6,857 nucleotides of DNA from a virus. Lineage: Duplodnaviria > Heunggongvirae > Uroviricota > Caudoviricetes. Shown piece after piece: positions 3,635 to 5,144 of this stretch. A program made the position numbers and the translations under genes. Position 1 is the first letter of the stretch. Each line of letters opens with the position of its first letter. The notes under the pieces are model-generated. The model saw nothing but the letters and a program-made list of their open reading frames with translations. It was not told the DNA's origin and made no database searches. Location of the stretch: the IMG/VR virus record IMGVR_UViG_2529292836_000013. One strand, 5' to 3'.

Positions 3635-3747
3635 CTATATTCATTCTTCCAGATTCCTTCCGGCAGAGCCTTATACTGAAATATACCTGGCTCAGGATAT
3701 TGTTGAAAATATTTTATGTTTGTCAAAAATAAAAGTTCTGTTAAGTA

Positions 3748-4101
3748 TTGATTGAGTGTTTGTTATACGGTCTAATGGTTTTTTCAGCATTAAATATTTA
3801 TCATTCATATGGTGTGGGTAGAGTGAATATTGATGAGGCGTCGGGGTGTTTCATCCTTAGGCAGCGTATTGATATAGTCAATGCAGGACGAGCAAAGGCC
3901 TTCAGCCGTTTGACAGTTTTGTTCTGTACTCCTGATCGTCTTTCGGGAAGAGACGTTATTATTCTGAATAGTGATGCTATACAGAGGGTTTGCGATGAGT
4001 TCATGGTTGCTAATTCAGAATTATTTGCTCTTGTTCAGGAGTACAACAGAATAGCCAGGACCTGTGGTATGGATGAACTTCGGATTACTCATCTGGGGTA
4101 G
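3748..4101 (+). CDS. Doubtful ORF in AT-rich cargo DNA (117 aa from TTG; 108 aa from in-frame ATG at 3775)
   Basis: Open frame only. No convincing Shine-Dalgarno before any candidate start, AT-rich, and no recognisable motif. It may be non-coding or a decayed gene. Confidence 0.25.
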   Translation: MIECLLYGLMVFSALNIYHSYGVGRVNIDEASGCFILRQRIDIVNAGRAKAFSRLTVLFCTPDRLSGRDVIILNSDAIQRVCDEFMVANSELFALVQEYNRIARTCGMDELRITHLG

Positions 4102-4492
4102 ATACATATCTGGATTATCACTTGTTACGGTAAAAAGTGATTGCTTACTGTTTTTGTGAGTGGCATTGCAGCAGCCGGATAATGTCAGTGCTGGCTGACG
4201 GTGTACTGGTGGCGGGTGTGGTGGTTGTTGCTTTCCCGTTGCTGAAAAAGAAAACGCCAGACTGTTAGCCGGGTATCAGTTAGCGGGAGAAATTTTTAAA
4301 TACTTCACAATTCAGGCGGTTGACTGTTGTCTGGTTTGCGGGGAGTTTGTTAAAAGAAACTGGCATGGTGAATCCCCCTGTGCGGAGGGGCAATCAGCGA
4401 GTAGGTATATGGGATAATCGCGGATTCAGGTGCTGGTACTGAATTCACCGGGAGGCACCCGGCACCATGCAATGGCACATAGCGCCACTCTC

Positions 4493-4524
4493 CAGCCCCT
4501 CTCCGGAGGGGCTGTTTATATTGA
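4493..4524 (+). terminator. Strong intrinsic terminator on the + strand (9-bp GC-rich stem, 4-nt loop, T-rich tail)
   Basis: CAGCCCCTC-tccg-GAGGGGCTG followed by TTTATATTGATTTT. The minus-strand side has no U-tract, so it is unidirectional. Confidence 0.7.
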
Positions 4525-4548
4525 TTTTGTCAGATGTGAGTAAACTCC

Positions 4549-4884
4549 TTATGGACTTTGTTGTTTTAGTCCATAAGGACATATTTGCAGAGTGCAACGG
4601 TTATTAAAGCATTCATTCAATACGTTATCTGTATTTGTAGGACATTCCTGGCTGTTTTTGATTAAATTCCAGAATGTTTTATTGAATGGTACTACGTTGT
4701 AAATGGTTACAGGTAGCACTTTGTTATTGAGCATGATACCTGTGTGAGTCAGTGTAAATATACTTTCAGGAGGTAAGAAAGCATCCGATTGATACCAGAT
4801 TATTAATTTTATTTTACTCCATATGACTGAAAAAGATATTCCGCATGATGGCTGGATAACTGTATCAATCACAATCCACTTCAT
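4549..4884 (-). CDS. Hypothetical protein, 111 aa, orphan moron gene transcribed against the late operon
   Basis: ATG at 4884 (minus strand) preceded by AAGGAAG 4 nt upstream. AT-rich, with an AT-rich promoter-like region at 4885-5000. Translation [41 protein letters not shown]... has several Cys and no motif I recognise. Confidence 0.55.
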
Positions 4885-5144
4885 TTAGCTTCCTTGTTTA
4901 TGCCTTGCTGGTGATGTTCTGAAAAGTATAAATGATATTTTTGAATATAAACCATAGAGCAGAATTATTTTTCTGATGTTGTTTATTGTTTATTTAAATG
5001 CAGGGTGGTTTATATCTCGTCTTGTAGTTTATCCATGCATATCTGCTTGATGATCAGGTTTCTATTTAAGGTATGGTTTTGTGTTTTTTCTGTGTTACAT
5101 GTCTGGTATTTTAAAGAATTATTTTTCAGATGGTGGAAAGAACC

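Follow-up and report, generated by a model that had tools for sequence, protein, structure and literature searches.

A probable cargo ("moron") region of a potB-type lambdoid prophage, with iraL and a conserved helical-hairpin gene on either side of an STnc100 small RNA

The DNA analyzed here (the window, 6,857 nucleotides) is a Caudoviricetes virus record, IMGVR_UViG_2529292836_000013 of IMG/VR, and the segment of interest occupies positions 3635 to 5130. A reading made from the letters alone (the sequence-only reading) had placed a cargo hotspot here, with the Q/tRNA module on one side and the lysis genes on the other. This placement stands: Q, a tR'-like terminator, and tRNAs lie upstream and the holin and lysozyme genes downstream. 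Q itself, at 2420-3241, was recognized by a Pfam Antiterm match. The terminator, found by a terminator scan on the plus strand 3' of Q and the late promoter, lies at 3322-3341, within an element delimited as 3322-3348. Directly after it comes a putative tRNA promoter, TTGCGG and TATTAT with a 17-nt spacing (~3347-3375); phage 933W has its putative pT annotated at the aligned position, 2083-2111 (blastn anchor, window 3345-3645 to 933W locus 2081-2380). Three plus-strand tRNA genes follow. The one at 3385-3460 has the anticodon CAT and is called Met by ARAGORN and tRNA-Ile by RefSeq; as an ileZ type it would read AUA once lysidine-modified. The middle one (3468-3544) is recognizable by alignment with CFT073 and phi296 as a decayed tRNA-Arg, the equivalent of argN; its anticodon arm is scrambled relative to both, and neither ARAGORN nor Rfam detected a tRNA there. 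The third, a tRNA-Arg (UCU) of the argO type at 3561-3635, forms the left border of what we term cargo slot A.

The segment was described as visibly AT-rich compared with the flanking phage genes, and it is: its GC content is 39.3%, versus 50.1% in the left flank and 50.9% in the right, and the lowest-GC 1,496-nt stretch of the window begins at 3670. The AT-richness is not uniform. Low GC is confined to two blocks, 3636-3822 (31% GC) and 4524-5129 (32% GC), which are separated by ordinary and GC-rich sequence.

The first gene of the segment was found as a mechanical open reading frame of 117 amino acids at 3748-4101 on the plus strand. Its true start, for which a TTG at 3748 and an ATG at 3775 also come into question, is probably a GTG at 3823, which would yield a 92-residue protein (3823-4101); distant homologues, 91 to 99 residues long, begin at the corresponding position, V26. 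Is this a gene at all? The sequence-only reading was right that the frame exists and wrong to call it doubtful. Comparison with a homologue that is 56% identical gives a dN/dS of 0.32 in frame versus 1.2 and 0.8 off frame, and splitting the frame yields 0.27 for the core alone and 0.60 for the 25 N-terminal codons. The five close copies examined all keep the frame unbroken, and it aligns over its full length with the phage family phrog_2873 (E = 3.5e-70). Each of the 22 aligned relatives likewise matches phrog_2873, and 19 of them also match phrog_4827, both being families to which no function is attached. This is a real, conserved protein-coding gene under purifying selection. The family comprises about 40 clusters from six genera (E. 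coli, Citrobacter, Salmonella, Morganella, Serratia, and Xenorhabdus), and wherever the neighbors were read in a prophage, in five lineages from the genera other than Xenorhabdus, the gene sits after Q/tRNAs and before the holin. It was the profile searches that extended the family past E. coli; a scan of GTDB species representatives returned E. coli alone, because the back-translated patterns that it used were too specific.

AlphaFold2, given the 92-residue core and 22 sequences, predicts two antiparallel helices (residues 3-34 and 50-81) with a pLDDT of 89, while the full 117-residue frame with a shallow alignment gives a pLDDT of 69, residues 1-25 being disordered. As modeled, the protein is a simple two-helix hairpin that lacks catalytic or membrane features. 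Searches of Pfam, NCBIfam, PADLOC, and the PDB gave no match or only chance-level ones, and Foldseek against BFVD and the PDB returned nothing but generic helical hairpins at E values above 0.1, for example EmrA, prefoldin, and designed hairpins. A non-significant profile resemblance to GapR/UPF0335 among PDB sequences (E = 0.055 to 0.16, 37 residues of one helix) was set aside as a coiled-coil likeness; the top 50 Foldseek PDB hits for the hairpin model include no GapR entry. Partnership with an AraC-type regulator was also considered. Such a regulator gene lies directly upstream of hairpin homologues in two E. coli prophage lineages. The window and the loci of Serratia, Morganella, Citrobacter, and Salmonella lack it; the association is therefore not a general one, and the idea was dropped as an explanation of the family. 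RefSeq leaves the frame unannotated in CFT073 and NCCP 13717, and through omissions of this kind, in CFT073 and other genomes, the gene has been overlooked despite its location in the stx slot. The family is thus real, widespread, and inconsistently annotated. Tentatively, the late operons of lambdoid prophages in Enterobacterales may open with this conserved and so far unrecognized gene, which would serve a specific accessory function, perhaps the tuning of lysis or late gene expression, counter-defense, or, in the two E. coli lineages, partnership with the AraC-type regulator.

The next gene, at 4137-4268 on the plus strand, encodes a 43-residue DUF3927 protein (Pfam PF13064, 95.6 bits against a gathering score of 25, E = 1.7e-27; phrog_1470; RefSeq WP_000562553.1). 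PHROGs labels the family "TciB-like," and a literature search for TciB yielded nothing relevant. The product is a tiny membrane protein.

Beyond DUF3927 lies a GC-rich block (~4300-4520, 55% GC) that had been noted as apparently non-coding. The block is there, and it is a member of a known prophage small RNA family: cmscan identifies STnc100 (RF02076) at 4334-4523 on the plus strand with 132.4 bits (threshold, 47; E = 7.5e-30), covering model positions 1 to 206 of 206. The conserved block begins at about 4296, and STnc100 forms the right border of slot A. Its Rho-independent terminator spans 4493-4520 and accounts for the strong terminator reported earlier, a 9-bp stem with seven GC pairs (4493-4514) and a T-run. 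When six copies, drawn from three loci, were aligned, compensatory changes appeared in 11 of the 39 predicted base pairs; with so few copies, and related ones, the covariation supports the structure without deciding it. What drives transcription? A promoter scan found 6 sites versus 5.5 expected in shuffled sequence and no convincing sigma-70 promoter for STnc100 or the hairpin gene, nor was a convincing one for STnc100 found by eye. Four small open reading frames in the segment, at 4320-4442, 4350-4478 (minus strand), 4445-4597 (minus strand), and 5005-5208, match no family and are rejected as genes; the first three all overlap STnc100. A RefSeq pseudo-ORF antisense to STnc100 (window 4353-4478) is probably spurious.

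The Hfq-bound element EcOnc27/sRNA103, located downstream of stx2B in O157 Stx2 phages, overlaps STnc100 (PMC12711010), and STnc100 is kin to the Hfq-bound PasD sRNAs of EPEC (PMC12711010; bioRxiv 10.64898/2026.05.13.724894). Overexpression of EcOnc27/sRNA103 is reported to affect fimZ and espA (PMC12711010; bioRxiv 10.64898/2026.05.13.724894). STnc100 has also been detected in vesicles, though its targets are only hypothetical (PMC12711010, PMC12370729). A trans-acting role is poorly established.

Slot B begins immediately after STnc100 and extends from 4524 to 5129. The minus-strand gene that the sequence-only reading had seen here, with its own ribosome binding site, is iraL (4549-4884), encoding a 111-residue RssB anti-adaptor of the IraM family that is 100% identical to CFT073 WP_000871291.1. 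NCBIfam NF007393 covers residues 1 to 110 with 162 bits (cutoff, 121), K-12 IraM is 62% identical over 107 residues, and the IraM structure in PDB entry 8twd is matched at an E value of 9e-32. A Shine-Dalgarno sequence, AAGGAAG, lies at ~4891-4897, 5' of the iraL ATG. The 5' untranslated and promoter region (4885-5129, minus strand) has a GC content of 30%, and a published 5'-RACE sequence (PMC4045071) matches it at 28 of 28 bases, corresponding to 4890-4917 on the minus strand, where chance would give 0 matches. [quoted passage not shown]

The function of this gene has been described in CFT073. Two-hybrid, pull-down, and sigma-S stability assays showed that CFT073 IraL binds RssB and stabilizes sigma-S, and in lysogens a sigma-70 promoter belonging to iraL itself drives its transcription (PMC4045071). 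[quoted passage not shown] The window gene belongs to the IraM/IraL family, and by analogy with the identical CFT073 protein its product would likewise bind RssB and stabilize sigma-S. In short, iraL is already known to act in lysogenic conversion, by raising RpoS levels.

The right border of slot B is the remnant of a nanS-p type esterase gene (5130-5491, plus strand). It consists of an N-terminal DUF1737 piece (5130-5333, Pfam) and a C-terminal piece (5330-5491), together equivalent to positions 1 to 58 and 582 to 632 of the 634 in phrog_143; the catalytic middle, about 1.6 kb, is deleted, and RefSeq flags the remnant as "incomplete." Might any of these genes serve in phage defense, as had been suggested? 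Six open reading frames were scanned against the 5,027 models of PADLOC-DB 2.0. The hairpin frame, iraL, DUF3927, and the 5005-5208 frame had no match at E values up to 0.1, and the suggestion finds no support in this database. AbiEii hits to the adjacent DUF1737 frame (5130-5333, outside the segment proper) had E values of 0.011 to 0.036 and were discounted as chance level.

Where does the segment come from? In E. coli CFT073, the potB prophage matches the window at 99.4% identity over 1-3349 and at 97.7% over 3343-6200. Among 5,426 complete E. coli genomes, 859 cover 80% or more of window 3200-5600, and most of the elements of the segment are already annotated in genomes that carry it; the exact matches are ETEC-type and other isolates. 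The insertions differ from those of CFT073, whose potB prophage has an IS200 copy that is absent here, whereas here the lysozyme gene is interrupted by an IS66 element. A frameshift affects the DUF968 gene. With these two lesions and the deletion in nanS-p, the prophage is defective, and Q-driven transcription may therefore never reach its late-strand genes. The segment is mostly ordinary, an already-sequenced and common cargo region of E. coli prophages, and the description of it as having no recognizable genes is overturned by the matches to NF007393, RF02076, DUF3927, and phrog_2873. The prediction of an undescribed accessory function fares no better, since the main cargo protein is the IraL of CFT073, whose experimental characterization dates from 2014 (PMC4045071). 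Taken together, the segment offers little new biology.

In all likelihood, then, the segment is the cargo, or "moron," region of a prophage of the CFT073 potB type built on a Stx-phage scaffold. The tests made here established the sequence identities, the family memberships, the synteny, the covariation in the RNA, and the purifying selection acting on the hairpin gene. The scaffold runs in the order Q, late promoter and terminator, tRNAs, slot A, STnc100, slot B, nanS-p esterase, and holin. Slot A (3636 to ~4300) holds the late-strand hairpin and DUF3927 genes, followed by STnc100 with the terminator that closes the unit; slot B (4524-5129) is an AT-rich cassette with iraL on the minus strand. 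Opposing late transcription and sitting behind the STnc100 terminator, iraL would be active in the lysogen and shielded from basal transcription arising at the late and tRNA promoters. STnc100 would be an Hfq-dependent sRNA doubling as a terminator, perhaps liberated from the 3' terminus of a transcript running through the tRNAs, the hairpin gene, and DUF3927. The hairpin protein may be an accessory factor of the late operon that makes protein-protein contacts through its coiled-coil hairpin.

How does this reading fare against others? One, that of the sequence-only reading, proposes that the two main frames encode an accessory system not yet described, for instance phage defense, a toxin, or a new regulator. 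The hairpin protein gives it some footing, as a protein under selection that lacks any relative in Pfam, NCBIfam, or the PDB, whose gene occupies the slot held by stx in 933W and follows an AraC-type gene in the two E. coli lineages. We nevertheless consider it unlikely: the minus-strand frame is the already characterized iraL (PMC4045071), none of the segment's frames matches a PADLOC model, the hairpin is modeled as two plain helices, and the fixed late-operon place of its gene across genera resembles phage backbone rather than variable cargo. Less probable still is that the segment is decaying, nonfunctional filler. The prophage is visibly degraded, as the IS66 insertion, the DUF968 frameshift, the nanS-p deletion, and the decayed middle tRNA attest, and RefSeq has no hairpin frame in CFT073 or NCCP 13717. 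Yet iraL retains an undamaged coding sequence and 5' untranslated region, both agreeing with the CFT073 allele whose activity was shown experimentally, the hairpin frame is unbroken in each of the five close copies and under purifying selection, STnc100 keeps its full structure, and the block persists in the 859 complete genomes.

A more serious contender, to which we give a minority but appreciable chance, concerns STnc100 alone and holds that it is mainly a structured terminator and insulator acting in cis rather than a trans-acting sRNA. It would stop basal transcription from the late and tRNA promoters before iraL, to which such transcripts are antisense, and before the lysis genes, and Q-modified RNA polymerase would read through. 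The strong terminator at its end fits this role, as do its constant place in the late-operon leader, with cargo before it and lysis genes after, and the lack of a clearly identified promoter of its own. One STEC prophage carries four STnc100 copies, three of them in tandem, an arrangement that suits stacked terminators. A plain terminator, however, has no need of a multi-helix body with compensatory changes, and the overlap with Hfq-bound EcOnc27/sRNA103, the fimZ and espA effects, and the kinship with PasD (PMC12711010; bioRxiv 10.64898/2026.05.13.724894) also weigh against it. The two roles are compatible.

The preferred reading, a cargo region on a Stx-phage scaffold, is best appreciated beside known systems. 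In 933W the order is tRNAs, stx2AB, STnc100, AsxR (minus strand), and esterase, with the tRNAs ending at 2372, stx2AB at 2463-3703, and STnc100 at 3778-3983, beginning 75 nt past stxB2 and scoring 207.7 bits. The window anchors to this locus at 3345-3645, 4305-4471, and 5144-5252, the last of these at the 5' end of the esterase gene in 933W. The two thus share a scaffold with two cargo slots flanking STnc100. Slot A carries the hairpin and DUF3927 genes here and the Shiga toxin genes stx2AB in 933W, so that the upstream neighbor of STnc100 is DUF3927 in one and stxB2 in the other; slot B carries a protein gene, iraL, here and the anti-sRNA AsxR in 933W, on the minus strand in both. The stx-equivalent position assigned to the whole segment holds accordingly for part of it: the stx2AB slot lies between tRNA-Arg (UCU) and STnc100, which in the window is 3636 to ~4300 only, and iraL falls in the second slot. 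Comparison of this interval with 933W, a check of the kind proposed earlier, thus pairs stx2AB and AsxR there with hairpin/DUF3927 and iraL here. The stx-less phage phi296 has STnc100 and NanS directly after its tRNAs. In all of the loci compared, STnc100 is in the late-operon leader, 3' of the cargo and 5' of the lysis genes, and the STnc100 of O157 Stx2 phages has the same helices, terminator, and leader place before the nanS-p esterase gene. The window copy is about 71% identical to that of 933W over 179 aligned bases (132 versus 208 bits), a divergence such that the base-pairing seed may differ.

The cargo of slot B has close counterparts of its own. [quoted passage not shown] IraM is induced by Mg2+ starvation via PhoPQ. 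It binds both RssB domains, while IraL binds only the N-terminal one and is active in unstressed log phase (PMC4045071). The nearest known system is CFT073 IraL (formerly YcgW; Hryckowian et al. 2014, PMC4045071), with the same 111-residue protein, potB layout, and mRNA 5' end; the gene itself is identical and the host strain differs. Set around STnc100, the pairing of stx2AB with hairpin/DUF3927 and of AsxR with iraL yields a two-slot map, one that explains why unrelated cargo recurs at the same two points in the late-operon leaders of lambdoid phages.

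The window belongs to a defective lambdoid E. coli prophage, of which it spans the region for late regulation and lysis. Its leftmost feature is a hok/sok module, with a hokD-type toxin ORF at positions 94 to 249 and, at 1 to 96, a hit to the sok antitoxin RNA that covers part of the model, scores 35 bits against a threshold of 59, and is truncated by the window edge. There follow a frameshifted DUF968 gene (988 to 2036), rusA, the gene for the antiterminator Q (2420 to 3241; Pfam Antiterm, E = 6e-55), and a tR'-like terminator (3322 to 3341) that precedes two tRNA genes. To the right of the segment considered here (3635 to 5130) lie a DUF1737 fragment and, beyond it, a holin gene, a ydfR-like gene, and the lysozyme gene. 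This last is interrupted by the IS66-family element ISCro1 (window 6594 to 6857; 7923 to 10538 in comparison locus L001), so the prophage is unable to lyse normally. By megablast, several complete E. coli genomes carry 100% identical copies of window 3200 to 5600, and at least 80% of that interval is present in 859 of 5,426. The potB prophage of uropathogenic CFT073 is 99.4% identical to the window over 1 to 3349 and 97.7% over 3343 to 6200, the sole large difference being an IS200 copy present in CFT073.

What does the segment contain? The sequence-only reading had described an AT-rich cargo region, and the composition bears this out: GC is 39.3% versus 50.1% and 50.9% in the flanks, and a scan of the whole window places the 1,496-nt stretch of minimum GC at a start of 3670. 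The AT richness is patchy, with 31% GC in the leader (3636 to 3822), 44% in the gene for a small helical hairpin protein (3823 to 4101), 51% in a DUF3927 gene (4137 to 4268), 55% in the small RNA (sRNA) STnc100 (4334 to 4523), and 32% in the iraL cassette (4524 to 5129). The elements named in that reading (a plus-strand ORF, a GC-rich block, a strong terminator, and a minus-strand gene with a ribosome-binding site) were all found. Its view that there were no recognizable genes fails, as iraL, STnc100, and DUF3927 were all identified. The content is thus already known and sits in hundreds of genomes, which leaves little of the proposed undescribed accessory function; a defense-model search of the ORFs in the segment found no defense system or toxin.

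The minus-strand gene, iraL (4549 to 4884), encodes a 111-amino-acid relative of IraM. The product scores 162 bits against the NCBIfam model for the anti-adapter protein IraM (cutoff, 121), matches the solved IraM fragment 8twd (E = 9e-32), and is 62% identical to K-12 IraM. Its translation is identical to that of WP_000871291.1, found at the same position in the CFT073 potB prophage. Hryckowian et al. (PMC4045071) named the CFT073 gene iraL, placed it on the potB island, reported 58.9% identity to IraM, and gave the 5' start of its mRNA as ACATCACCAGCAAGGCATAAACAAGGAA. The window has a single copy of these 28 nt, on the minus strand at 4890 to 4917 with no mismatches, where 0 occurrences are expected by chance. 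Together, the identical protein and the exact mRNA start identify the gene, 5' untranslated region, and start site as the characterized CFT073 allele. That allele has its own sigma-70 promoter, active in the lysogen. In log phase it makes sigma-S both more abundant and more stable; IraL sequesters RssB, shielding sigma-S from ClpXP, and the host's general stress response is thereby raised in that growth phase (PMC4045071).

The GC-rich block, previously taken as apparently noncoding, and its terminator turn out to be STnc100: cmscan places Rfam RF02076 at 4334 to 4523, covering the full model (132.4 bits versus a threshold of 47; E = 7.5e-30), with nine pairs and then a T-run forming the terminator at 4493 to 4514. 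Six copies were aligned: the window's own, four from one STEC prophage, and that of phage phi296. From this alignment RNAalifold recovered the terminator together with three internal hairpins and a long helix that closes the structure, and 11 of 39 pairs show two-sided changes that preserve pairing. The four STEC copies lie in the late-operon leader of the STEC1585 prophage (NZ_CP129252.1; locus positions 3575 to 3787, 5547 to 5742, 5806 to 6005, and 6067 to 6256), three of them in a head-to-tail array just ahead of an esterase gene, each with its own terminator. The family is prophage-borne and akin to the Hfq-bound PasD sRNAs of EPEC (bioRxiv 10.64898/2026.05.13.724894). One paper puts it 75 nt beyond stx2B (PMC12370729), and another has it overlapping EcOnc27/sRNA103, an Hfq-bound RNA of O157 (PMC12711010); only hypothetical targets have been put forward so far (PMC12711010, PMC12370729). 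In the RefSeq annotation of CFT073 and NCCP 13717, the strand opposite STnc100 carries a pseudogene labeled as a partial "hypothetical protein" (window 4353 to 4478, minus strand). It has no family match and is probably a spurious call.

Upstream of STnc100, DUF3927 (43 amino acids; E = 1.7e-27) is annotated by RefSeq. The plus-strand ORF at 3748 to 4101 is annotated by RefSeq in neither CFT073 nor NCCP 13717 and had been judged doubtful, yet it is a real gene. Its match to phrog_2873 runs over the full length (E = 3.5e-70), and an STEC prophage homologue with 56% identity keeps the whole reading frame at 65% nucleotide identity, with dN/dS of 0.32 in frame and of 1.2 and 0.8 in the two alternative frames. 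The ratio is 0.27 for the core (codons 26 to 117) and 0.60 for the first 25 codons. Most homologues start at the position of V26, so translation likely begins at GTG 3823, to yield 92 amino acids. An exhaustive profile search and a second, indexed one turned up about 40 clusters, distributed over E. coli, Citrobacter, Salmonella, Morganella, Serratia, and Xenorhabdus, none with a Pfam domain; full-length members, mostly 91 to 110 amino acids, are all labeled hypothetical. GenBank holds exact 92- and 108-amino-acid versions, also as hypothetical proteins. The protein is genuine and conserved, if inconsistently annotated.

The company the gene keeps is fairly constant. In Serratia the order is Q, two tRNAs, the hairpin gene, two small genes, and lysozyme; in Morganella, Q, a methyltransferase, the hairpin gene, holin, and lysozyme; in Citrobacter, the hairpin gene, a TerB-like gene, DUF3927, and holin; and in Salmonella, Q and others, the hairpin gene, a Rha-like gene, and holin. 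Sitting so regularly where the late operon begins, the gene resembles part of the phage backbone more than it does random cargo. Two lineages of E. coli prophages have, immediately upstream of the hairpin-family gene, a gene for an AraC-type (HTH_18) regulator of 241 to 242 amino acids (L003, 164 to 889, with a 22-nt gap; L004, 4164 to 4889; L019, 3142 to 3870). Outside prophages, a 91-amino-acid member occurs at 4001 to 4276 of Rep3-type E. coli plasmid contigs (L012 to L014), beside a tRNA gene (3347 to 3418 in L012) and an adjoining K88-like fimbrial operon that includes a PapB regulator. AlphaFold2, given 22 sequences, confidently predicts an antiparallel two-helix hairpin (helices 3 to 34 and 50 to 81; pLDDT 89). 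Between the helices is a conserved loop, which in the closest relatives reads PDR.SG. Fold searches returned generic hairpins only, and a weak resemblance to GapR (E = 0.055) was not significant. A specific, interesting role for the family is possible, though less likely than not.

How might these parts work together? ARAGORN calls the tRNA at 3385 to 3460 tRNA-Met (CAT), while RefSeq and the 933W annotation call it tRNA-Ile (ileZ), which would read AUA once lysidine modified. The argN equivalent, the tRNA-Arg in the middle of the ileZ-argN-argO trio (3468 to 3544), is decayed, its anticodon arm scrambled relative to CFT073 and phi296; neither ARAGORN nor Rfam calls a tRNA there, and the tRNAs on both sides are intact. 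AUA makes up 6 of the 111 codons of iraL, and the long hairpin ORF has three each of AUA, AGA, and AGG; we infer that these rare codons are those read by the neighboring tRNAs. A similar match has been noted in Stx phages. Directly after the tR'-like terminator, a putative tRNA promoter lines up with the pT annotated in 933W. Transcription from it could run through the tRNAs, hairpin gene, and DUF3927 and stop at the STnc100 terminator, and the sRNA might be freed from the 3' end of that transcript. The same terminator may also keep sense-strand transcription out of the convergent iraL for as long as Q has not been made.

The segment is a genuine compositional island in a genuine cargo hotspot, and comparison with phage 933W separated two positions within it. 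Phage 933W carries ileZ, argN, and argO (locus 2121 to 2372), stxA2B2 (2463 to 3703), STnc100 (3778 to 3983; 207.7 bits), which begins 75 nt past stxB2, the anti-sRNA AsxR immediately afterward on the minus strand (3985 to 4037), and a nanS-p type esterase gene (4190 to 6127) followed by holin. In the window the sialate esterase gene survives only as an N-terminal DUF1737 piece (5130 to 5333) and a C-terminal piece (5330 to 5491), corresponding to phrog_143 positions 1 to 58 and 582 to 632 of 634, the catalytic middle of about 1.6 kb having been deleted. Window and 933W share three anchors: the tRNAs (3345 to 3645), STnc100 (4305 to 4471), and the 5' end of the esterase gene (5144 to 5252). 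These confine the strict stx-equivalent stretch to 3636 to about 4300 (slot A), so that the stx-equivalent position proposed for the whole segment holds there and not for the iraL region. By alignment, iraL and its promoter (4524 to 5129) occupy a second slot, B. In the stx-less phage phi296, tRNAs, STnc100, and NanS follow one another directly. In 933W, slot A holds stxA2B2 and slot B holds AsxR on the minus strand, where the window has the hairpin gene and DUF3927 in the one and iraL, in the same place and orientation, in the other.
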